From a virus (taxonomy: Duplodnaviria; Heunggongvirae; Uroviricota; Caudoviricetes): 24,703 nt of DNA. The translations under genes and the position numbers were made by a program. Positions 2,833 to 16,878 of this stretch are shown here, piece after piece. Position 1 is the stretch's first letter, and the number at the start of each line of letters is the position of its first letter. Under the pieces are notes generated by a model. It saw only the letters and a list, made by a program, of their open reading frames with translations. It made no database searches and had not been told where the DNA came from. The stretch lies in the IMG/VR virus record IMGVR_UViG_2778261164_000008. One strand, 5' to 3'.

Positions 2833-3429
2833 TTAATTCGAGACTATTGTACTTCTTATACAAGCAACCACTTCAATATCAGAAAATGCACATTCAAAGC
2901 TATTCTCTGCTGTTGTAATTTTAATCATTCCTTTAGGAAGCCTTGTGATTTTTCGAATGGAATAGGTTCCGTCGATATTGATTAACCAGTTTCCATCAAG
3001 TACTTCAGAAAATTTTTGATCACAAATGTATGTGACGAGTCCATCCTGAACAACAATTGGTGATGAAAGGTTTGCAGGAAGAAATGATGAATCGAAGACA
3101 TATGAACCGTCTTCAATCATTTTGCCTGCGGCAAGGCGAAACTTAACAAGCTCTTCTGTAGCTGCTGTCAGCGAGCTTTGCTTAAGGCCTTGTCCGGTAG
3201 TTAACCATTTGAGGGAGGTTCCTGTTTCAAGAGCACATTGGATTATCCAGTCAGCAGGAAATGTATCCCGCAAATACCTGTTCGCTAGTGTGCTTTTTGA
3301 TACTTCCAAGTGATCAGCTAAAGCCTGTCGTGTCGTAAAGCCATAGGCTTCGACTAATCGCTCAATCGCAGCCTTACCACCTTTATTGGGATTTATTTTG
3401 ATCTCACTTGGGTACTTTGATGTTGACAT
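2833..3429 (-). CDS. cI: Phage immunity repressor CI (186-type)
   Basis: 198 aa, ATG at 3427-3429. N-terminal segment ...VEAYGFTTRQALADHLEVSKSTLANRYLRD...CALETGTSLKWLTTGQG resembles the 186 CI HTH region as I recall it; C-terminal FECAFSDI also similar. Divergent from apl/cII as in the 186 switch. Confidence 0.8.
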   Translation of the reverse strand: MSTSKYPSEIKINPNKGGKAAIERLVEAYGFTTRQALADHLEVSKSTLANRYLRDTFPADWIIQCALETGTSLKWLTTGQGLKQSSLTAATEELVKFRLAAGKMIEDGSYVFDSSFLPANLSSPIVVQDGLVTYICDQKFSEVLDGNWLINIDGTYSIRKITRLPKGMIKITTAENSFECAFSDIEVVACIRSTIVSN

Positions 3430-5352: not shown

Positions 5353-5579
5353 TGGCTGATGCAATGGATCTCGTACAGCAGCGCGTTGAAGAAGAACGCC
5401 AGCGCCATATCCGTGCAGCCCGTGCCAAATCACCGGGCGTGTCACGCGTACTTTGCATTGAATGTGAAGCGCCAATTCCGCCAGCACGACGCCGCGCCAT
5501 TCCGGGAGTGCAGCTTTGCATTACCTGTCAGGAAATCGCAGAACTGAAAGGCAAACATTACAACGGAGGTGCTGTATGA
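5352..5579 (+). CDS. TraR/DksA-family C4 zinc-finger protein
   Basis: 75 aa with CIECEAPIPPARRRAIPGVQLCITCQ (CxxC-N17-CxxC), typical of phage TraR-like proteins found upstream of the replication genes in P2-like phages. Confidence 0.8.
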   Translation: MADAMDLVQQRVEEERQRHIRAARAKSPGVSRVLCIECEAPIPPARRRAIPGVQLCITCQEIAELKGKHYNGGAV

Positions 5580-6433
5580 GCACCATCCTGAAATGGGCGG
5601 GAAATAAAACCGCCATTATGCCAGAACTGAAAAAATACCTTCCTGCTGGCCCGCGACTGGTTGAACCTTTCGCGGGTTCCTGTGCTGTGATGATGGAAAC
5701 GGATTATCCCAGCTATCTGGTTGCGGATATTAATCCTGATTTAATCAACCTCTATAAAAAGGTTGCCGCTGATTGTGAATCGTTTATATCTCGCGCCAGA
5801 GTTTTATTTGAGATCGCAAACAGGGAGGTGGCTTATTACAACATAAGGCAGGAGTTTAACTGCTCAACTGAAATTACTGATTTCATGAAAGCGGTATATT
5901 TCCTGTATCTCAATCGTCACGGTTACCGTGGTTTATGTCGCTATAACAAGAGCGGGCATTTCAACATTCCCTACGGTAATTATAAAAATCCGTATTTCCC
6001 TGAAAAAGAACTTCGCACATTTGCAGAAAAAGCCCAGCGAGCAACGTTTATCTGCGCCAGCTTTGATGAAACGCTGGCGATGTTGAAGGCGGGAGATGTG
6101 GTGTATTGCGATCCGCCATATGACGGTACGTTTTCCGGCTATCACACTGATGGTTTCACTGAAGATGACCAGTATCACCTGGCATCCGTTCTTGAACATC
6201 GGTCATCAGAAGGACATCCGGTCATTGTTTCTAACAGTGACACATCCCTGATCCGTTCGCTGTATCGCAATTTTACTCACCACTATATCAAGGTAAAACG
6301 CAGCATCGGTGTGGCAGCTGGCGAGGGTAAATCAGCAACAGAAATCATTGCTGTTTCCGGGCCGCGCTGCTGGATGGGATTTGATTATTCGCGTGGCGTG
6401 GATAGTTCTGCCGTGTACGGAGTACGTGCATGA
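5576..6433 (+). CDS. dam: DNA adenine methyltransferase (Dam-like, GATC-type N6-adenine MTase)
   Basis: ATG at 5576 with GGAGGT RBS at 5565-5570. N-terminal LKWAGNK...EPFAGS (AdoMet-binding motif) and catalytic DPPY at CDPPYDGTF. Stop overlaps the gene A start (ATGA). Confidence 0.9.
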
Positions 6434-8844
6434 GTCATGCCGATATGAACAACTGCTGCGGCTTTAACGAGGCTGCCGCAGCATTCTCATGGAACAGCCC
6501 GAAAAAGGCCATTAACCCTTATCTGGACCCGGCGGAAGTTGCGCCGGTTTCTACGCTTTCAAACCTGATCACTCTGTACGCTGCCGATAACGAGCAGGAA
6601 CAGTTGCGCCGCGAGGCACTGAGTGATCAGGTCTGGGAGCGTTATTTCTTTAATGAATCACGTGATCCTGTCCAGCGCGAAATGGAGCAGGATAAGCTCA
6701 TTAGCCGGGCAAAGCTGGCGCATGAGCAGCAGCGTTTTAATTCAGACATGGTCATTCTGGCGGACGTCAACGCCCAGCCTTCCCATATCAGCAAGCCGCT
6801 GATGCAACGTATTGAATACTTCAGCAGCCTGGGCAGGCCAAAGGCTTATTCCCGCTATTTACGTGAGACGATTAAGCCATGTCTGGAACGACTGGAGCAT
6901 GTACGCGACAGTCAGCTATCTGCATCTTTTCGCTTTATGGCAAGCCATGAAGGGCTGGACGGCCTGCTGATCCTGCCTGAAATGAGTCAGGATCAGGTGA
7001 AACGCCTGTCCACCCTGGTAGCTGCGCATATGAGTATGTGCCTTGATGCAGCTTGTGGTGATTTGTATGCCACCGATGACGTTAAGCCAGAAGAAATCCG
7101 CAAGACATGGGAAAAGGTGGCAGCGGAAACCCTGCGTCTGGATGTCATCCCACCTGCGTTTGAGCAACTCCGTCGGAAAAGAAACCGCCGTAAACCCGTG
7201 CCCTATGAACTCATTCCGGGTTCGCTGGCGCGTATGTTGTGCGCCGACTGGTGGTATCGGAAATTATGGAAGATGCGTTGCGAATGGCGGGAAGAGCAGT
7301 TGCGCGCTGTTTGCCTGGTCAGCAAAAAAGCATCTCCTTATGTCAGCTATGAAGCCGTGATGCATAAACGTGAGCAGCGCCGTAAGTCGCTGGAGTTTTT
7401 CCGTTCTCATGAACTGGTGAACGAAGACGGCGACACGCTGGACATGGAGGATGTGGTAAACGCCAGCAGCAGCAACCCTGCGCATCGCCGCAATGAGATG
7501 ATGGCCTGTGTTAAAGGTCTGGAGCTTATCGCGGAAATGCGCGGTGACTGCGCCGTTTTCTACACTATCACCTGTCCGTCGCGTTTCCATTCCACGCTAA
7601 ATAACGGCAGACCAAACCCGACCTGGACAAACGCGACGGTAAGACAAAGCAGCGATTATCTGGTCGGCATGTTTGCTGCATTTCGTAAGGCGATGCACAA
7701 AGCCGGGTTGCGCTGGTATGGCGTGCGGGTGGCTGAGCCGCATCATGATGGCACAGTTCACTGGCACCTGTTGTGTTTCATGCGCAAAAAAGACCGCCGT
7801 GCCATCACTGCATTACTGCGTAAGTTTGCCATCCGTGAAGACCGCGAGGAGCTGGGCAATAACACTGGGCCGCGCTTTAAGTCTGAGTTGATTAACCCGC
7901 GCAAAGGAACGCCGACAAGCTACATCGCGAAATATATCAGTAAGAACATTGACGGTCGTGGTCTGGCTGGCGAGATCAGCAAGGAAACGGGTAAATCTCT
8001 GCGTGATAACGCTGAATACGTGAATGCCTGGGCGTCTCTGCATCGTGTTCAGCAATTCCGCTTCTTTGGTATTCCGGGGCGTCAGGCTTACCGTGAACTT
8101 CGCTTGCTGGCTGGTCAGGCGGCAAGGCAACAGGGTGACAAAAAAGCAGGTGCGCCGGTACTGGATAACCCGCGTCTTGATGCCATTCTGGCTGCTGCTG
8201 ATGCTGGTTGTTTTGCCACCTACATCATGAAGCAGGGCGGCGTACTGGTTCCCCGTAAATATCACCTCATCAGAACCGCTTATGAAATCAACGAAGAGCC
8301 GACCGCCTATGGCGATCACGGCATTCGTATTTATGGCATCTGGTCACCCATTGCAGAGGGCAAGATCTGCACTCATGCAGTGAAGTGGAAAATGGTTCGT
8401 AAAGCCGTTGACGTTCAGGAGGCGGCAGCCGACCAGGGCGCTTGCGCCCCTTGGACTCGTGGCAATAACTGTCCCCTTGCTGAAAATTTGAACCAACAGG
8501 AGAAAGATAAATCAGCTGATGGGGACCCCAGAACGGACATTACCAGCATGGATGACAAGGAGTTGCACGATTACCTGCACAGTATGAACAAAAAAGAGCG
8601 CCGGGAACTGGCTGCAAGGTTACGCCTGGTGAAACCGAAACGGCGTAAAGACTACAAACAGCGAATTACAGACCATCAGCGACTGCAGCTCGTGTATGAG
8701 CTGAAGTCCAGAGGATTTGATGGCAGCGAGAAAGAGGTCGATTTACTCCTTCGCGGAGGCAGTATTCCGTCAGGAGCAGGCCTGCGTATCTTCTATCGGA
8801 ACCAGCGTTTGCAAGAAGATGATCAGTGGCGGAACCTGTATTAA
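6430..8844 (+). CDS. A: Replication initiation endonuclease gpA (rolling-circle, P2 A family)
   Basis: 804 aa; contains [10 protein letters not shown] (HxH metal-binding motif of the rolling-circle initiator) and a YIAKYISK tyrosine region; size and position match P2/186 gene A. Confidence 0.9.
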
Positions 8845-8997: not shown

Positions 8998-9186
8998 ATG
9001 CAGGACTATTTTTTGGAGTCTTTGAAGCTCCAGCGCATTGATTTTTTTCTTAAGCTTGTAGCGGCTAGTGAGTGTAGTGATGAAGAGAAGGGGCTGGCTC
9101 TGCAGTGGGTTTCTGAATTGACTGATGAACTCATGGCAAAAATCAGAACCCACGAATACAACCGCTCAATGGATGTCATCAGCTGA
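8998..9186 (+). CDS. Small SOS-regulated protein (possibly Tum-like antirepressor N-terminal part)
   Basis: ATG at 8998 preceded by GGAGGAAAG; 62 aa; directly downstream of the LexA box, in the position of the 186 tum operon. Confidence 0.5.
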   Translation: MQDYFLESLKLQRIDFFLKLVAASECSDEEKGLALQWVSELTDELMAKIRTHEYNRSMDVIS

Positions 9187-9196
9187 GGTGACTTTT

Positions 9197-9430
9197 ATGC
9201 GCATTGAAATAATGATCGATAAAGAGCAGAAGATTAGCCAGTCTACCCTGGACGCCCTTGAATCCGAGCTTTACCGCAATCTGCGCCCCCTGTATCCCAA
9301 AACGGTAATTCGCATTCGCAAAGGTAGCTCTAACGGTGTGGAACTAACCGGACTGCAACTGGACGAAGAAAGAAAACAAGTGATGAAAATTATGCAGAAG
9401 GTGTGGGAAGACGACAGCTGGCTGCATTAA
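9197..9430 (+). CDS. DinI-like protein
   Basis: ATG at 9197 with GAGGTG RBS; 77 aa MRIEIMIDKEQ...LDALESELYRNL...KVWEDDSW resembles E. coli DinI in length and pattern (MRIEV...ETWE..W). Confidence 0.8.
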   Translation: MRIEIMIDKEQKISQSTLDALESELYRNLRPLYPKTVIRIRKGSSNGVELTGLQLDEERKQVMKIMQKVWEDDSWLH

Positions 9431-9565
9431 GAAACGTTGCTGGCGCCTGAACTTGCTTCTGGCGTCAGCAAGGTTGAACAACGAGCCCTTGCGAGGCGTT
9501 AGCTCTGTAGTGCATGTCTATGCCGCATGAGATCGCATGATCGTTTGAGGATCGTTTTTGCTAAG

Positions 9566-9590
9566 GCCCGCCAGAACTGGCGGGCTTTTG
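9566..9590 (+). terminator. Rho-independent terminator
   Basis: GCCCGCCAG-aa-CTGGCGGGC perfect 9-bp stem followed by TTTT, downstream of the DinI-like gene. Confidence 0.7.
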
Positions 9591-9634
9591 CGTAGATCAT
9601 GCAGGTGCATGAAAACCACTACATAAAGCGGGCA

Positions 9635-9653
9635 GGCGTGGCGGGGATACGAG
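9635..9653. other. Candidate cos (cohesive end) site of the P2/186 type
   Basis: GGCGTGGCGGGGATACGAG; the first 13 nt match the 186 cohesive end as I remember it (GGCGTGGCGGGGA...) and a GCGCGCT block follows, as in the P2 left end. Recalled, not searched. Confidence 0.4.
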
Positions 9654-9692
9654 CGCGCGCTACCGCTTTTAGGATTATGCTGTTCAAAAACA

Positions 9693-9721
9693 TTGACTGC
9701 TATGCTAATTTAAGATTAATC
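9693..9721 (+). promoter_or_regulatory. Weak candidate promoter for the two-gene cargo cassette
   Basis: TTGACT at 9693-9698 followed 16-17 bp later by ATTAAT/TTAATC, upstream of the 9758 start. Confidence 0.3.
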
Positions 9722-9757
9722 CCAAAATGGAAGCAATTATTTTCGTAAGGAAAGAAA

Positions 9758-10576
9758 ATGCGAGTTAATTACGATGTTATTATCAAAAGCGGCGATGATG
9801 AAGTAGATATGGAATACGGTCTCGACACGCTTGCAGGAACTGCAGAGGTTACTTGCTTGTTGGCGGAGGCTATACTTAGGAAAGTAATAATAAAGCGCCG
9901 CTCTCATGTAAATCCTGCAAGGGCTGTACTCAAGAGGAATTTCACCGGTTCTTATGGTCAAAATTTTGACTTGGTTATTAATGATGCTGAACTGGTATCA
10001 GAACTTCGCAAAATATCTAAACCAGTATTTAATGAAGTGATGAGTTTCTTTATTTCGCAATCATTATATTTAGAGAGTCGCGAACTTTCCAATGAAGCGG
10101 AAGAAGTAGTTAAAGGTTTATCGGATATTGAGGATGAGTTGATAGGTCGTATTCGAGCTCCTCTAAAAAGAATGCATGAAATTAATCTCAAAAAAAACTA
10201 TAATATCGAGTTAAACTTTAAACAGCGTGCCCATGATAAGAAAAAAGTAATTGAATTAGATACATCTACTGCAACAAATTTATTCACATCACGTGTTTTA
10301 AAAAAGACTGAAGTAATCAGGGCTTATATTACAAGATTTAATGCTCGCACTGGCAATGGTAGGCTTGTTCTTGAGGGCGAAAATGATACGGTGGCATTTG
10401 GGTTTTATAGCCCCTTACGTGTCATCATTCCAGCTCAAAAAAGAATGATTTCGGCTAACTTACATGTAAATAATCCGCCTTCCACTGCTGGCTATATTTA
10501 TCTTGAACTGACTGTAAGTCGGGTAATAATTAACAGTGGGGAAACTGTGAAATATTTAGTGCATACGGTGCAGTAA
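9758..10576 (+). CDS. Hypothetical soluble protein, gene 1 of AT-rich two-gene cargo cassette
   Basis: 272-aa ORF, ATG at 9758 with AAGGAAAG RBS; AT-rich; no family recognised by eye. Confidence 0.7.
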   Translation: MRVNYDVIIKSGDDEVDMEYGLDTLAGTAEVTCLLAEAILRKVIIKRRSHVNPARAVLKRNFTGSYGQNFDLVINDAELVSELRKISKPVFNEVMSFFISQSLYLESRELSNEAEEVVKGLSDIEDELIGRIRAPLKRMHEINLKKNYNIELNFKQRAHDKKKVIELDTSTATNLFTSRVLKKTEVIRAYITRFNARTGNGRLVLEGENDTVAFGFYSPLRVIIPAQKRMISANLHVNNPPSTAGYIYLELTVSRVIINSGETVKYLVHTVQ

Positions 10577-10577
10577 G

Positions 10578-11324
10578 ATGTTAAAAATAATTTGTTTAGC
10601 TCTCATAATAATAGTTTTGGGGGTTTATTGTATTAAGTTTGGCCCCTGGTACTTAAGTACTCAAGATGCTGATGTTTGGGGGCAATTTGGGGACTTCATG
10701 GGTGGGGTCCTGAATCCTATACTAAGTTTTATCTCGATTTGCCTGCTGATTCGCTCTGTAACTTTACAAGTGCAGTCTAACTCAACATTGAAACAAGAGA
10801 TAAAAAGACAAGAGTTACTTGAAGATTACAAAAAATTTGAAGTGAGGTTTTTCTGTCTAATTGAATCTCAAGATTCTAATTATAATAAATTGCGTATTGT
10901 AATCGGTAATGGAGCAGATAATGATGATGAAAGTAAAGGGGGGGGGACCAAAGAACCTACACTTATTGAGTATAGATCTAATAATGCTATAACTTTCATT
11001 GATGATAACTTGAGCATCTTGGTTAGAGCTGGAATAGAAAAGAAAAGAATCATTGCATGGTTGGAAAGTTTAGATGTTGATGATCATTTTTTCTCTTTGG
11101 TAAGAAGATTTTATCTTTTGGTGAAGTTGATAGATGATAAAGTTGAAAGTGAAAAAAAAGCTGAGCAATATGAGCTGTTAATAAATATGACTGATGAAAA
11201 GCTTTTGACTATGATTGTTATTCTTTGTGAGTATTTTGATTGGGCAAATGTTTTGTATATTAAAAATAGTGGAATCATAGAGCAGGCTAAAATGGATGAC
11301 TATATTTCTAATTATAGAAACTAA
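10578..11324 (+). CDS. Hypothetical membrane protein (2 predicted N-terminal TM helices), gene 2 of cargo cassette
   Basis: ATG at 10578, 1 nt after the upstream stop (translational coupling). N-terminal hydrophobic segments LKIICLALIIIVLGVYCIKF and GGVLNPILSFISICLLI; the rest is charged and soluble-looking. Confidence 0.7.
   Translation: MLKIICLALIIIVLGVYCIKFGPWYLSTQDADVWGQFGDFMGGVLNPILSFISICLLIRSVTLQVQSNSTLKQEIKRQELLEDYKKFEVRFFCLIESQDSNYNKLRIVIGNGADNDDESKGGGTKEPTLIEYRSNNAITFIDDNLSILVRAGIEKKRIIAWLESLDVDDHFFSLVRRFYLLVKLIDDKVESEKKAEQYELLINMTDEKLLTMIVILCEYFDWANVLYIKNSGIIEQAKMDDYISNYRN
10938..10946 (+). repeat. G9 homopolymer tract inside the membrane-protein gene
   Basis: ggggggggg at 10938-10946 (encodes KGGG) inside an otherwise AT-rich gene. 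Confidence 0.9.
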
Positions 11325-11375
11325 ATAACCTCAAACACTTTTTCAATGTTTAAGGTTTACCGGGTTTGTTGTTAT

Positions 11376-12407
11376 TTAATTATCTAAAGTGTATTGGGTG
11401 AATGAAATAATTTTTTCGCCCACCCAAGAATTAACTTCTTTTAATCGCCCTTGTAGATAAATTAATTCATTACGTACAAATACCAGACTGGCCTTCTCCA
11501 CATCTCCAAACCCACCTACATTGCTCGGCATAATCCCCATCATTTGCGGCGGCACACGGTGTGCAGCCATCATGTCGTCCCGGCTCACGTTCTTGATGTT
11601 CAGAAATTCATCCTTCGCTGCGACTTCTGACAGCGGGATGATCTGAAGCCCGTCCTTTTTGCCGTTAGGCGAGTACATAAACAGGTTGCGGAAGTTGCCT
11701 GGACCTTTGGCGCTTTTCATCGCGTTGCGGAGGTTGTTCACATCTTCCTGGTTCTGCGCGGCGTCGGTCATATACATGATGAAGCCAGCATGACTGCCGT
11801 TAATGTAATACTTTCGACGGAACAGCGTGGCGGACTCATTGAGCAGGGCGGACGGAATGGCAGAAAGATAGCCGGGCAAGCCGTAGATCTCCTGGTTAAT
11901 GTCCGGTTCCATCAGATGAAAAATGCTGCCTTTCGTGAACTGATATGGCTGGGTTGTCATACCGTATTGCACAAACCAGTAGGTATCCAGGTCTAACCCG
12001 CGTCGGGTGTATTTTGCCAGCGCAGGCTCAAGGGCGATAACTTCACCGAAGCGGTTCGTGCGTTTCTCCAGGTAGGCGTTACCAAAAACCAGATAGTCCT
12101 GCACAAAACGCGAAAAAGCCTGCTGGCTGAGCAGCGGGTGAGGGATGTAGGTGCTGGTCAAAATGTTGCATTTCACCGCAATCGGTGAGCTGTGATGCAC
12201 GGCGGCGCGGAAGGTTCGTGCCAGTCCGTCAAAGCTGACGGGCGGCTCATACCAGCGATCCATCTGTACGCATTCCACATAGTCCAGCAGTTCGCGGCGG
12301 TCCAGAACAGGAACGGGATCACCGAAGCTGAATGCTTCGGCTGAAGTCTGGCTTTTATGCTGGTTCTGGTTCGTCGACGCAGCGCGGTTCTTCTTACTCT
12401 TTCCCAT
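11376..12407 (-). CDS. Q: Portal protein gpQ
   Basis: 343 aa from ATG at 12405-12407, which overlaps the P stop (TGATG); the track ORF starts one codon earlier at a TTG. Size matches P2 Q (~344 aa); position downstream of terminase P on the leftward strand. Confidence 0.9.
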   Translation of the reverse strand: MGKSKKNRAASTNQNQHKSQTSAEAFSFGDPVPVLDRRELLDYVECVQMDRWYEPPVSFDGLARTFRAAVHHSSPIAVKCNILTSTYIPHPLLSQQAFSRFVQDYLVFGNAYLEKRTNRFGEVIALEPALAKYTRRGLDLDTYWFVQYGMTTQPYQFTKGSIFHLMEPDINQEIYGLPGYLSAIPSALLNESATLFRRKYYINGSHAGFIMYMTDAAQNQEDVNNLRNAMKSAKGPGNFRNLFMYSPNGKKDGLQIIPLSEVAAKDEFLNIKNVSRDDMMAAHRVPPQMMGIMPSNVGGFGDVEKASLVFVRNELIYLQGRLKEVNSWVGEKIISFTQYTLDN

Positions 12408-14173
12408 CAAAAAATCTCCACAATATTGCTGGCATTGGCGGACTCGCCCTGCAGCGGTTCGTTAAACAGTGCGTGCATTGTTGCCCAGGCCAGATCGGCA
12501 TGGCTGGCTTCTTCGCTGCGGCTGGCTTCATAGGTCGGGCGGTTGCCGCTGGCGGTGGTGGCGCGACGGATTGCCATGAATGACTGCGCAATGTCGGTGT
12601 GTCCGGCGTCAAATTCCAGGCGGCGGTGACTGATAATGTCGTAGGCCTTGAGTACCAGGGCGTTTTTAACGTTGGGGTTGTAGACAAACTCCCGGACGGC
12701 AGGAAAAAACGCTTTCACGTTCTCGTAAACCCCGTGACCGACGCCGGTCGAGTCGATGCCGATATAGGTCACGTTATACTGTTCGGTCAGTTTTTTGATG
12801 GCGTCAGCCTGGGCGCGGAAGTCCATTCCGCGCCACTGGTGACGCTCAAGAATGCGGAACTTACCGCCCGGCACGACTGGCGGTGCCACCACCACGCATC
12901 CGGCGCTGTCGCCGTTCTGCGTACCTTTTGCCGGGTCATAACCGATCCACACTTCGCGCCAGCCAAACGGGCGCAGGGCCAGTGCATGAAAGTCGGTCCA
13001 GACTTCCCAACTGTCCACCATGCACGCCTGCAGCTCGCTGAGCGGGAACACGGACGCGAGATCGTCCACGAACTCACACATCAGCAGGTTCTGGTATTCG
13101 TCCGGGCTGTATTCCATGCGCAACTGGTCAAGGTCGAACAGGTTACAGCCGCCGCGCACCGCATCTTCTACGGTGACTATCTGGCGGTATTGCCCGTCTG
13201 CGCACAGCAGGCCGGGGGCCAGATTGCTGTGGGACAGGTCGATGTCCACCTTGTCGGCTTTGTTGCGTCCACGGTTGAACAGCGCACCGGACCAGAACGG
13301 ATAAGCACTGTGGGTCAGGCTGGATGGCGTGGAAAAATAGGTTTGTCGCCATTTTTTGTGAATAGCCATACCGGAAGCCACTTTGCGCAGCTCCTGGAAT
13401 TTCGGTATCCAGAAATATTCATCCAGATACAGGTTGCCGTGGTAACTCTGGGCAGTGCGAGCATTGGTGCCGAGGAAATACAGTGTGGCCCCGTTGGGAA
13501 GCACCATCGGATCGCCTTTCAGCTCCACTTCCACTTCTTTGGCGAAGTCGATGATGTACTGCTTAAAGACGTGCGCCTGTGCCTTACTGGCAGAAAGGAA
13601 AATCTGGTTACGTCCGGTTAGCAGGGCGTCAATCAGGGCTTCACGGGCAAAATAGAAGGTCGCGCCGATCTGGCGTGACTTCAGCAGGTTGCGGATGCGG
13701 TTGGTTTTTCCGGCTTCCCACCAGTGACGCTGGTAGTTGAACATGGAGGAATGGAAGATTTCTTCCAGCTTCTCAATCTGTTCATCGGTGAAAACATTCT
13801 TTTCAGGCTGACGGCGCGGGCCTTTGTTGCGGTTGGCGACGTTAGGGTTTAAATCGGCTTCGTTGCCGCCATTGTTAAACTTGCCGATCCGCGCGTGGCG
13901 CTCCGACTGGCGCGCCAGCAGATCAATTTCTTTGAAATCTTTCCCTTCTTTGTGCTCCTTCATAATGAGCTGGCAGTAACGTGCGGCGGTGGTGAGCTGC
14001 ATCTGATCCAGCGGCCCATAGTCACCCCACTTGTCGCGTTTTTTCCAGCTGTGAACGGTTGCAACTTTCTCGCCCAGCATTTCAGCAATGCGGGCGACGC
14101 GGTATCCCTGAAAGTACAGCAGCATGGCCTGCCGACGGGGATCGAGATCTGCGGGTGTCAGTGTGGTGTTCAT
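12407..14173 (-). CDS. P: Terminase large (ATPase) subunit gpP
   Basis: 588 aa, ATG at 14171-14173; size and synteny with Q, O, N, M match P2 gpP (~590 aa). Confidence 0.9.
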   Translation of the reverse strand: MNTTLTPADLDPRRQAMLLYFQGYRVARIAEMLGEKVATVHSWKKRDKWGDYGPLDQMQLTTAARYCQLIMKEHKEGKDFKEIDLLARQSERHARIGKFNNGGNEADLNPNVANRNKGPRRQPEKNVFTDEQIEKLEEIFHSSMFNYQRHWWEAGKTNRIRNLLKSRQIGATFYFAREALIDALLTGRNQIFLSASKAQAHVFKQYIIDFAKEVEVELKGDPMVLPNGATLYFLGTNARTAQSYHGNLYLDEYFWIPKFQELRKVASGMAIHKKWRQTYFSTPSSLTHSAYPFWSGALFNRGRNKADKVDIDLSHSNLAPGLLCADGQYRQIVTVEDAVRGGCNLFDLDQLRMEYSPDEYQNLLMCEFVDDLASVFPLSELQACMVDSWEVWTDFHALALRPFGWREVWIGYDPAKGTQNGDSAGCVVVAPPVVPGGKFRILERHQWRGMDFRAQADAIKKLTEQYNVTYIGIDSTGVGHGVYENVKAFFPAVREFVYNPNVKNALVLKAYDIISHRRLEFDAGHTDIAQSFMAIRRATTASGNRPTYEASRSEEASHADLAWATMHALFNEPLQGESANASNIVEIF

Positions 14174-16227: not shown

Positions 16228-16878
16228 ATGAGCCTGAGTCCCGCACGGCAGCATCGCCTGCGCGTTCAGGCTGAACAGGCCGCCCGCGAGGGCGGCAGTG
16301 TTCGCCACGCATCGGGCTATGATCTGATGCTGCTGCAACTGGCGGAAGACCGCCGCCGTCTCAAGGGCGTTCAGTCCACGGTCAAAAAAGCGGAAATCAA
16401 GGTGGAGCTGCTGCCGAAGTACGCCGCCTGGGCAGAGGGTGTCCTGGCTGCCGGAGGCGCTCAACAGGATGACGTGCTGATGTACGTGATGCTGTGGCGC
16501 ATTGATGCCGGAGATTATGCCGGGGCGCTGGAGATCGGGCGTCATGCCCTGCGTCATGGCTGGGTGATGCCGCTGGGTAACCGCAACGTGCAGACCGTGC
16601 TGGCAGAGGAAATGGCAGACGCCGCACAGAGCGCAATGCTTGCCGCCACCGGCTTTGATGCCGATCTGTTGTTGCAGACGCTGGAGCTGACAGACGGTCT
16701 GGATATGCCGGACCAGTCACGGGCGCGTCTGCATAAAGCGATTGGCGCTGTCCTGAGTGAAAGCAATCCGGCTTCCGCCCTTAATCATCTCAACCATGCG
16801 TTACAGCTCGATCCCCGCTGTGGCGTGAAAAAAGACAAACAGCAGCTGGAGCGCAGACTGCGCAATGACAGCCGCTGA
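16228..16878 (+). CDS. M: Terminase small (endonuclease) subunit gpM
   Basis: 216 aa immediately after N; synteny with P2 gene M. Confidence 0.8.
   Translation: MSLSPARQHRLRVQAEQAAREGGSVRHASGYDLMLLQLAEDRRRLKGVQSTVKKAEIKVELLPKYAAWAEGVLAAGGAQQDDVLMYVMLWRIDAGDYAGALEIGRHALRHGWVMPLGNRNVQTVLAEEMADAAQSAMLAATGFDADLLLQTLELTDGLDMPDQSRARLHKAIGAVLSESNPASALNHLNHALQLDPRCGVKKDKQQLERRLRNDSR

Follow-up and report, generated by a model that had tools for sequence, protein, structure and literature searches.

What does a cluster of GATC sites do next to a putative packaging site? The question is raised by a short region of a 24,703-nucleotide stretch of caudovirus DNA (IMG/VR record IMGVR_UViG_2778261164_000008; hereafter the window), in which GATC tetranucleotides, a hairpin, and a sequence resembling a phage cohesive end follow each other within little more than 100 bp. 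An earlier note on this DNA had proposed that the cluster could be a methylation-sensitive regulatory or packaging signal. We asked whether the region is a cos site, which of its GATC sites are conserved among relatives, and which function the conserved ones may have.

A P2/186-type cos site between dinI and the portal gene

The region is placed as the cos site is in P2, between gpA and dinI on one side and divergent portal and terminase genes on the other. gpA (6430-8844) is followed by a DinI/Tum-like gene (9125-9430, + strand; Pfam DinI), the homologous position being occupied by tum in 186. Beyond the putative cos site and two cargo genes lie the portal gene, a P2 Q homologue (11376-12410, - strand; Pfam Phage_portal, relatives 60-94% identical), the large terminase gene (12407-14173, - strand), and the gene for the small terminase subunit, a homologue of P2 gpM and 186 gpR (16228-16878, + strand; phrog_74, E = 1e-88), so that terminase genes of the gpM/gpP type are present.

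The cohesive end similar to GGCGTGGCGGGGATACGAE that the earlier note had pointed out is found as the 19-nt P2/186-type sequence GGCGTGGCGGGGATACGAG at positions 9635-9653 (+ strand), and the alignment with the P2 and 186 cos regions proposed there revealed homology of the 19-mer as well as of both flanks. Counted from the aligned sequences, GGCGTGGCGGGGATACGAG matches the 186 cohesive end (GGCGTGGCGGGGAAAGCAT) in 15 of 19 positions, the first 13 bases being identical, and the P2 cohesive end (GGCGAGGCGGGGAAAGCAC) in 14 of 19. The flanks of the 19-mer align with P2, 186, and P4, and the entire core, i.e. TGCAT(G/T)AAAACC...AAAGCGGGCA, the 19-mer, and CGCGCGC, aligns with P2, 186, P4, and PSP3. 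The cos sites of P2, 186, and the satellite P4 share a conserved core of 55 bp (Ziermann and Calendar 1990, cited by PMC3931495, PMC9594776, and PMC5694545), and the columns of this core that flank the cut sites carry 1.5-2.0 bits across 56 species-level relatives.

Deposited genomes locate the ends at the same place. Cohesive ends are annotated at the homologous 19-mers in the P2 and 186 records, the records of four phage genomes (PSP3, SEN1, SEN8, and EtG) have their last base aligned to 9634, and the Smp131 record has its first base aligned to 9635; the SEN8 record labels the identical 19-mer 'putative cos site'. Nicks are predicted in the top strand at 9634/9635 and in the bottom strand directly following 9653, and by homology the virion DNA ends of the phage would be these nicks with 5' overhangs of 19 nt, GGCGTGGCGGGGATACGAG being the predicted cosN. 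On the basis of these comparisons the identification of the stretch as DNA-packaging (cos) site of a P2/186-family prophage is well supported.

With the cos sites of P2, 186, and P4 the region shares a 19-nt GC-rich end starting with GGCG(A/T)GGCGGGG, the flanks AAAGCGGGC(A/G) and (T/C)GCGCGC, a proximal TGCAT(T/G)AAAACC and three distal TGCAT repeats with a GC-rich palindrome between them, and the location between right-end accessory genes and the portal gene. It differs from P2 and 186 in the last six bases of the 19-mer (the ends read ATACGAG here, AAAGCAT in 186, and AAAGCAC in P2), and from all three in the proximal repeat (TGCATGAAAACC instead of TGCATTAAAACC), in the T-run that accompanies the palindrome, and in a conserved GATC-N7-GATC motif, whereas P2/186/P4-type sites are nearly free of GATC. 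The small terminase follows this division: in loci with cos sites of the present, Fels-2 type it shares only about 49% identity with P2 gpM and 48% with 186 gpR, and its identity tracks the cos type. A cos site of the P2/186 family is, as such, ordinary. Of 5426 complete E. coli genomes, 1277 contain homologous cos blocks, and for this very common type of prophage the assignment sets the predicted termini of the mature genome.

Borders of the cos block and the adjacent cargo

The complete conserved cos block extends from 9511 to 9660 (+ strand) or, counted from the top-strand nick, from -124 to +25. In the 56 species-level relatives the information profile goes up at 9511 and drops beyond 9660, and in E. 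coli genomes homology to many prophages begins at about 9509-9511 and stops at 9660-9663, with unrelated DNA on both sides. At its upstream border (9511-9539, + strand) the block contains three TGCATG-type repeats (9511-9516, 9525-9529, and 9535-9539; 1.3-1.6 bits), and triple TGCAT repeats are located at the same place in P2, 186, and P4. GCATG occurs 27 times in the 24.7-kb window, four copies being located within 9512-9607. We presume that the distal repeats are bound by the terminase as recognition repeats. The proximal repeats TCATGCA-NN-TGCATGAAAACC (9597-9617, + strand; 1.5-2.0 bits) are part of the conserved cos core of the family and align with GGTGCATTAAAACC of P2 and with CATGCAACTGCATTAAAACC of 186 and P4.

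The last conserved bases on the left-end side are CGCGCGC (9654-9660, + strand; 1.2-2.0 bits), after which conservation is lost and cargo DNA directly follows. [quoted passage not shown] No satellite markers were found in a set of 120 IMG/VR contigs with the exact Fels-2-type 19-mer.

The cargo is an AT-rich cassette of two genes on the + strand (9758-11324; open reading frames 9758-10576, 272 aa, and 10578-11324, 248 aa) with a GC content of 0.28-0.43 as compared to about 0.52 in the flanking phage DNA. Given the cos assignment, about 100 nt separate the left end from the start of the cargo, so the suggestion that the cargo occupies the extreme left end of the packaged DNA holds for the predicted mature genome, in which the DinI/Tum-like gene would be the last before the right end. 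Neither protein has a Pfam match, and searches of Pfam, PADLOC, NCBIfam, PHROGs, and PDB sequences gave no informative match for either; the proteins match phrog_13337 and phrog_8999, both of unknown function, and PADLOC 2.0 returned marginal hits for the second protein only (ZorB, E = 3e-4; PDC-M43A, E = 9e-3). The same cassette is present in E. coli 22F46.

The cassette takes the place of the cos-to-Q interval of cargo-free relatives, in which the terminator tQ is included. The AT-rich hairpin between the cargo end and the portal stop codon (11327-11357, - strand), identified in a terminator scan, likely takes the place of tQ, and cargo-free relatives have a different, GC-rich hairpin at this position. 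Across 60 or more loci the distance between cos and Q ranges from 186 to >3500 bp. A cos-adjacent hotspot for cargo and defence genes is known for P2-like phages (Dodd and Egan 1996 and Nakayama 1999, as cited in PMC5694545; Rousset 2022, PMC9122126; PMC13586616). The present locus conforms to it in that foreign AT-rich genes lie between cosL and the portal gene and their content is highly variable among syntenic relatives, and differs in that its two-gene cassette has no Pfam family. The cos block defines a sharp border, at +26, for this exchange of cargo.

Two phased GATC sites are conserved in Fels-2-type cos sites

The three GATC sites that had been noticed within 23 bp are present at 9531-9534, 9539-9542, and 9550-9553, and a fourth one is located at 9595-9598. 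Counting within the window does not argue for a signal: there are 87 GATC sites as compared to 84 ± 9 expected, and a cluster of three in 23 bp arises somewhere in the window in about 15% of random placements (P about 0.15). We thus discarded enrichment within the window as evidence; as the cluster is not significant on its own, significance comes from relatives only, and only for two of the three sites.

Comparison of 161 unique cos regions separates the sites clearly. The GATC at 9531 (position -104 relative to the nick) occurs in 27 of them and results from a lineage-specific change of A to G (51 of the 56 species-level relatives have A in this column); the GATC at 9595-9598 (-40) is likewise lineage-specific (26 of 161). 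The other two sites form a pair, GATC-N7-GATC (9539-9553), with 11 bp from centre to centre, which is found in Fels-2-type cos sites from many genera, in about 90% of the unique sequences (138 of 161). The first G of the pair is located at -96 in 134 regions, with the second GATC at -85, and 137 of the distances between successive GATC sites are 11 bp. The spacers comprise 33 different sequences, yet the N7 spacing is invariant. At each of the eight columns of the two GATCs the base is conserved in 50-54 of the 56 species-level sequences, and these columns carry 1.4-1.8 bits versus 0.2-0.8 bits in the spacer and 0.2-0.9 bits in the columns between and just after the sites. About 10% of the unique clade members lack one or both sites of the pair, and as related cos sequences are not independent these counts overstate the number of evolutionary events.

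The cluster as originally described hence shrinks to two of its three sites. Similarly, the direct repeat GATCGTTT exists in two copies (9539-9546 and 9550-9557), but it is not a conserved unit: one subclade has the direct-repeat context, whereas another has the inverted arrangement GATCC-AAAAA-GGATC, so that nothing but the two GATC tetranucleotides and the N7 distance between them is common to both. Furthermore, a locus with a 186-type cosN (L067) contains GATC-N7-GATC with an unrelated spacer, and in a separate, Aeromonas-type cos clade three RAAGGATC units replace the TGCAT repeats. Per 150 nt, GATC is found 2.28 times in Fels-2-type and 3.00 times in Aeromonas-type cos sites as compared to about 0.6 times in shuffled sequences and 0.07 times in P2/186/P4-type sites.

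These patterns suggest that the pair is a selected component of the recognition array rather than a chance cluster, which we consider probable as part of the overall interpretation given below. P2, 186, and P4 package efficiently without GATC in cos; the pair is thus not a requirement across the family. A full-text literature search yielded no description of GATC or Dam in P2-like cos sites.

The GATC pair is independent of the phage dam gene

The phage encodes a D12-class (Dam-like) N6-adenine methyltransferase (5516-6433, + strand; Pfam MethyltransfD12, E = 3e-75), and this gene had been the rationale for ascribing a function to the GATC cluster. We compared the presence of the pair with that of a phage dam gene, scored as adjoining gpA, across loci of relatives. 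Pair and dam are both present in 28 loci, the pair occurs without dam in 21, dam without the pair in two, and neither in two. As there is no association between the two, the rationale has to be rejected; the GATC pair is independent of the phage dam gene.

Possible roles of the GATC pair

The reading we prefer combines a complete Fels-2/186-like Peduoviridae cos site (9511-9660) and a selected GATC pair with gating of packaging by methylation and with a palindrome that may also act as terminator, and as a whole we regard it as probable. By homology, the terminase (gpM and gpP) would introduce staggered nicks that generate the 19-nt cohesive end. After cleavage, virion DNA would have the DinI/Tum-like gene at its right end and, starting about 100 nt from its left end, the AT-rich cargo. 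The putative recognition array upstream of the cut would consist of the three distal TGCATG repeats, GATC-N7-GATC, the palindrome (9565-9586), and the proximal TCATGCA-NN-TGCATGAAAACC, the small terminase presumably being the protein that reads it.

In this array the Dam sites at 9539 and 9550 are one helical turn apart, and their un-, hemi-, or fully methylated state after replication could be read out either directly by the small terminase or by SeqA occupying the hemimethylated pair. The methylation state might then gate recognition or cleavage of cos, as at the pac site of P1, for which host Dam would suffice, the phage Dam being optional. More specifically, the Fels-2-type clade and, independently, the Aeromonas-type clade may have built Dam sites into the cos array so that methylation, sensed by the small terminase or SeqA, gates binding or cleavage of cos and only fully replicated, remethylated circles are packaged, a proposal that we put forward tentatively, considering it possible but not favoured.

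Precedents exist in the literature. The pac site of P1 contains seven TGATCA/G hexamers, and their methylation promotes cleavage (PMC10028697 and the work by Sternberg cited there). As in P1 pac, Dam sites are located within the repeated part of the packaging site, for which a recognition role is presumed here, the first conserved site, TGATCG, fits the P1 hexamer, and the phage encodes its own D12-class methyltransferase. P1, however, uses headful packaging from pac, whereas the present site is a cos with defined cohesive ends; seven sites there contrast with two conserved GATCs here (three in the Aeromonas-type clade), the terminases are unrelated, and many clade members here lack a phage dam gene. 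A methylation-sensitive role of the pair similar to that in P1 pac is plausible by analogy. [quoted passage not shown] From its sequence the pair is a candidate SeqA target, although it lies in a packaging site with two sites only instead of a replication origin. Our literature search found no methylome or packaging data on a methylation dependence of cos, neither in the Photorhabdus methylome nor in the Salmonella work on Dam and prophages.

The conservation of the pair would be explained equally well if the small terminase recognised a sequence that merely contains GATC, methylation being irrelevant. A host protein that bends DNA, such as Fis, might also be the ligand: the pair would then be the outer part of its site, the bend would join distal and proximal repeats, and methylation would be incidental. 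The Fis consensus calls for G at -7 and Y at -4, then an A/T-rich centre, followed by R at +4 and C at +7, and by inspection GATC-N7-GATC satisfies it. Spacers such as CAAAAAG and GTTTGAG are rich in A/T, their two main types resemble one element in either orientation, as would suit a symmetric dimer, and a bend would be useful at the location between the distal repeats and the palindrome. However, the consensus leaves the inner A and T of the GATCs unspecified, yet they are just as conserved (50-52 of 56) as the outer G and C, the bases at -3 and +3 differ from the A and T that it favours, and the three GATC units of the Aeromonas-type clade, spaced by 19 and 12 bp, do not fit a single 15-bp site. 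We consider the Fis explanation unlikely.

A bend is part of the cosB region of phage lambda, where the terminase sites R3, R2, and R1 and an IHF site are arranged as R3-I1-R2-R1 on the left-end side of the nick. The present array resembles cosB as a multipartite region beside the nick with repeated putative sites for the small terminase and a spacer that could hold a site for a bending or accessory protein, but it is located on the future right-end side and its repeat sequences differ. We also looked for an IHF site at the pair and found by eye neither a WATCAANNNNTTR-like match nor an evident IHF consensus in 9540-9566; on this visual inspection IHF was rejected as the ligand.

It is less likely still that the GATC cluster has no function and is merely a passenger of a cos block that owes its spread to recombination and its conservation to something else. 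The random-placement frequency of the cluster, the lineage specificity of two of the four local GATCs, and the functional GATC-free cos sites of P2, 186, and P4 are all in line with this explanation, but it leaves unexplained why the GATC columns stand out from those between and after them, why the spacing persists through 33 spacer variants, why GATC arrays recur in a separate cos clade, and why GATC is roughly four times as frequent as in shuffled sequences.

The GC-rich palindrome as cos element and putative terminator

Downstream of the pair lies a GC-rich palindrome with a T-run (9565-9589, + strand), which had been described as a strong intrinsic terminator. It consists of GGCCCGCCAG-AA-CTGGCGGGCT at 9565-9586 and TTTT at 9586-9589, and in the RNA fold of 9520-9610 (-39.7 kcal/mol, z = -3.7) it is the dominant structure, a 10-pair stem followed by UUUU, 136 nt past the dinI stop codon. 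A simple consensus terminator scan did not list the hairpin at 9565-9589; in our reading, a G-T pair draws the first T into the stem, leaving a tail that fails the T criterion. Among 112 unique sequences, base pairing at the stem columns is retained in 80-109, and 78 have a T-run of at least four. As the pairs are mostly invariant, there is little covariation, which speaks neither for nor against an RNA structure. The core CCAG-NN-CTGG also occurs in the cos sites of 186, PSP3, Yersinia, and the Aeromonas type, which have no T-run, indicating that the palindrome is primarily a cos element. The hairpin with its T-run is thus real, but it belongs to the conserved cos block, and it may double as a terminator in this sublineage, where its U-tract would probably end the rightward dinI/tum-like transcript before cosN.

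That the hairpin is instead simply the intrinsic terminator of a dinI/tum operon and the GATC cluster a Dam-sensitive control of dinI or cargo transcription, unrelated to packaging, is improbable: the strong stem followed by UUUU, the frequent T-run, and the terminators t95a and t95b annotated downstream of tum in 186 would fit, but pair and hairpin remain in the 150-bp cos block irrespective of the neighbouring genes (dinI or other cargo on the left; any of many cargos, or no cargo, on the right), a consensus promoter scan found no promoter-like site within 9500-9660, an Rfam scan of 9300-9800 gave no match, and the stem is conserved in sequence rather than by covariation, its core recurring where the T-run is absent.

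Implications for P2-like phages

The conserved, phased GATC pair is the sole element of the stretch that is not routine. Sequence beyond the 55-bp cos core raises the transduction of P2 cosmids more than 10^4-fold (PMC9594776), and the pair would consequently matter for the design of cosmids and transducing particles of the Fels-2/P2 type if it is methylation-sensitive. In that case Dam-controlled packaging would extend from the single example of P1 pac to cos phages. If the proposed gating is true, the Fels-2-type cos site would be the cos-phage counterpart of the P1 pac methylation switch, which would be part of the reason for the orphan Dam in many of these phages and would give the orphan Dam of P2-like phages a testable function.

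The cos site

The window holds a P2/186-family prophage whose genes stand in prophage order, with the integrase (1-1053), a PD-Lambda-1 homologue (1136-2812) and a 186-type CI repressor (2833-3429), all on the minus strand, followed by a D12-class Dam-like methyltransferase (5516-6433), the replication protein gpA (6430-8844), a DinI/Tum-like gene (9125-9430) and then the region under study. Two genes without annotation (9758-10576 and 10578-11324) lie 3' of this region, and after them come the portal (11376-12410) and large terminase (12407-14173) genes, both on the minus strand, and the scaffold, capsid and small terminase (16228-16878) genes.

All elements listed in the earlier note were found where it had placed them, among them a sequence resembling the P2/186 cohesive end, which it proposed to check by alignment. 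The predicted 19-nt cohesive-end sequence, GGCGTGGCGGGGATACGAG, occupies 9635-9653; cohesive ends are annotated at GGCGAGGCGGGGAAAGCAC in the P2 record and at GGCGTGGCGGGGAAAGCAT in the 186 record, the first 13 bases of the window 19-mer are common to 186, and the flanks align on both sides (...TGCAT(G/T)AAAACC-N-AAAGCGGGCA, 19-mer, (C/T)GCGCGC). When phage records were compared by blastn, the last base of the PSP3, SEN1, SEN8 and EtG records aligned exactly to 9634 and the first base of the Smp131 record to 9635, and the 'putative cos site' annotated in SEN8 (Felsduovirus) is identical to the window 19-mer. The alignment, the record ends and the SEN8 annotation thus confirm the proposed similarity, and homology strongly supports 9511-9660 as a P2-family cos site with predicted virion ends.

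Many prophages share a homologous segment that runs from about 9510 to 9660-9663 and is bordered by unrelated DNA; of 5426 complete E. coli genomes, 1277 contain matching blocks. An information profile of 56 species-level relatives (one genome per species) placed the limits of the conserved block at -124 and +25 from the predicted top-strand nick between 9634 and 9635, i.e. at 9511-9660. Within it, conservation is concentrated in three distal TGCATG-type repeats (9511-9539), GATC (9539-9542) and AGGATC (9548-9553) separated by a poorly conserved 5-nt gap, a palindrome with T-run (9565-9589) that follows a poorly conserved T-rich stretch, TCATGCA-NN-TGCATGAAAACC (9597-9617), and a nearly invariant core from -16 to +25. 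P2, 186 and P4 have a similar layout of three distal TGCAT repeats, a spacer and a proximal TGCATTAAAACC, and in 186 and P4 a GC-rich palindrome lies between spacer and proximal TGCATTAAAACC, that of P4 being a different one at the same place. The cos core of the P2 family is given as 55 bp (PMC3931495, PMC5694545), and a functional distal array fits with the >10^4-fold increase in P2 cosmid transduction obtained with longer flanks (PMC9594776). TerS identity follows cos type: TerS of Fels-2-type loci, the window's own cos clade, is ~49% identical to P2 gpM and 48% to 186 gpR, and window TerS shares a median of 91% identity with other Fels-2-type members and ~41% with TerS of the Aeromonas-type clade.

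A phased GATC pair in the distal array

GATC occurs at 9531, 9539, 9550 and 9595, with GATCGTTT present twice, at 9539 and 9550. Within the window taken alone the cluster is statistically unremarkable, as the total of 87 GATC sites compares with 84 ± 9 expected and three sites within 23 bp arise somewhere in ~15% of random placements. The comparison covered 161 unique cos regions, collected from 80 loci found by their portal protein and 120 IMG/VR contigs with the exact 19-mer. GATC-N7-GATC is present in 138 of them, its first G at -96 in 134 of those. The 7-nt spacer takes 33 different forms, and of the distances counted between successive GATCs 137 are 11 bp. At each position of the two GATCs, 50-54 of the 56 species-level relatives keep the conserved base, the bases between carrying only 0.2-0.8 bits. 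The earlier note had described the sites as part of a short direct repeat; what the subclades have in common is limited to the tetranucleotides and their phasing, that of the window having the direct repeat GATCGTTTGAGGATCG and another the inverted repeat GATCCAAAAAGGATC. All three GATCs of its cluster exist, but only those at 9539 and 9550 are conserved; judged from the alignment, the GATCs at 9531 (27/161 regions; A at its G column in 51/56 relatives) and 9595 (26/161) are lineage-specific. Homology strongly supports the pair as a conserved, phased part of the cos distal array. One or both of its GATCs are missing from about 10% of the unique sequences of the clade. Much less probable readings of the pair are a Fis-like bending site and neutral hitch-hiking in the conserved block.

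The pair does not depend on phage-encoded Dam, to which the earlier note had tied the cluster: among loci with gpA inside the fetched flank, 28 have the pair with and 21 without a phage dam, and loci without the pair divide into two with and two without. The hosts of the clade in this sample all belong to the Enterobacterales, whose members generally carry dam on the chromosome. P2 itself encodes no methylase (PMC3091744).

GATC in other cos types

In L067, a locus with 186-type cosN, GATC-N7-GATC encloses an unrelated spacer, GCCTCAC. The Aeromonas-type clade (20 unique sequences, Aeromonas phage LPM4 among them) lacks the distal TGCAT repeats and has three RAAGGATC units instead, conserved at -126, -107 and -95 and separated by variable sequence; in L292 (LPM4) and about 20 IMG/VR loci such as L299, L345 and L335 a GGCCAG-NG-CTGGCGCGG palindrome follows downstream of the units. 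Upstream of the nick, Fels-2-type regions average 2.28 GATCs per 150 nt, Aeromonas-type 3.00 and P2/186/P4-type 0.07, against ~0.56-0.60 in shuffled sequence, dividing the cos lineages into GATC-rich and GATC-free ones. Because the sequences are related, these figures do not measure independent events. P2, 186 and P4 show that the GATCs are no general requirement of the family.

In a further subtype from IMG/VR (L327, L336, L344, L307 and relatives) one GATC directly follows the third distal repeat (-93) and a GATC-N6-GATC pair lies directly 3' of the palindrome (-50 and -40); one GATC stands at this post-palindrome position in PSP3 and in a Yersinia 186-like phage. In P4-like satellites (L210-L289, IMG/VR) all 65 unique cos regions are P2/186-type, with TGCATTAAAACC and without GATC, diverging immediately past the 19-mer and (T/C)GCGCGC. 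A Fels-2-type cos was seen in none of the satellites, although about a quarter of complete E. coli genomes contain such a block; the satellites may be confined to helpers with P2/186-type terminases.

The hairpin

The hairpin GGCCCGCCAG-AA-CTGGCGGGCT followed by TTTT (9565-9589) dominates the local fold and is not called by a simple terminator scan. Of 112 unique sequences, 80-109 allow pairing at the stem columns, mostly without variation and therefore with little covariation, and 78 have a T-run of at least four. The hairpin and TTTT that the earlier note had called a strong terminator are present. The core CCAG-NN-CTGGCG is kept without a T-run in the Aeromonas-type clade as well as in 186, PSP3 and a Yersinia 186-like phage. 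From this comparison we interpret the hairpin as a palindrome that belongs to cos and is conserved as DNA. In the window sublineage it may have the added role of terminating the rightward dinI/tum transcript; 186 has terminators downstream of tum. The promoter and Rfam scans found no promoter-like site and no Rfam family in the cos block. A purely transcriptional role of hairpin and GATC cluster is improbable.

Cargo beside cos

Conservation ends at +25, where an AT-rich cassette begins (GC 0.28-0.43 versus about 0.52) that stands in place of all sequence as far as the portal stop codon, the GC-rich tQ terminator of cargo-free relatives included, and has its own AT-rich, 13-pair hairpin (11327-11357, minus strand). 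This hairpin sits between the cargo end and the portal stop codon, the place of the tQ terminator in the cargo-free loci L014, L027 and L029. The same cassette is found in E. coli 22F46 (L088), where cos is flanked by different DNA on its far side. There, two extra genes (L088 2451-3508) separate dinI from cos at the right end, so that both sides of the 150-bp block accept cargo independently. SEN8 has two cargo genes ahead of its portal gene, and the cos-to-portal distance among relatives ranges from 186 bp to >3.5 kb. This hotspot was already known (Dodd and Egan 1996 and Nakayama 1999, as cited in PMC5694545) and is also described in PMC9122126 and PMC13586616; both the cos site and the position of the cargo are of kinds already described.

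The cargo proteins (272 and 248 aa) match solely PHROG 13337 and 8999, of unknown function, and sequence comparison with Pfam and PDB gave no relative for either; the second has a weak MotB/ZorB-like N-terminal match (PADLOC E = 3e-4). The two-gene cassette is a candidate for an uncharacterised defence or exclusion system. A second cargo position lies between integrase and CI repressor, where the PD-Lambda-1 defence-protein homologue (PADLOC E = 2e-120) has T5orf172/MUG113 and DUF4041 domains.

Possible role of the GATC pair

Full-text searching of a literature library found no description of the conserved GATC-N7-GATC element or of the GATC-rich versus GATC-free split of P2-family cos types, and no paper joining P2-like, GATC, cos and Dam. 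At P1 pac, methylation of TGATCA/G hexamers promotes cleavage (PMC10028697). By analogy with the P1 pacase, the small terminase could read methylation of the pair directly; SeqA occupancy of the hemimethylated pair would be another route. The pair would then be read in a methylation-dependent manner, and either route would tie cos use to finished replication and remethylation.
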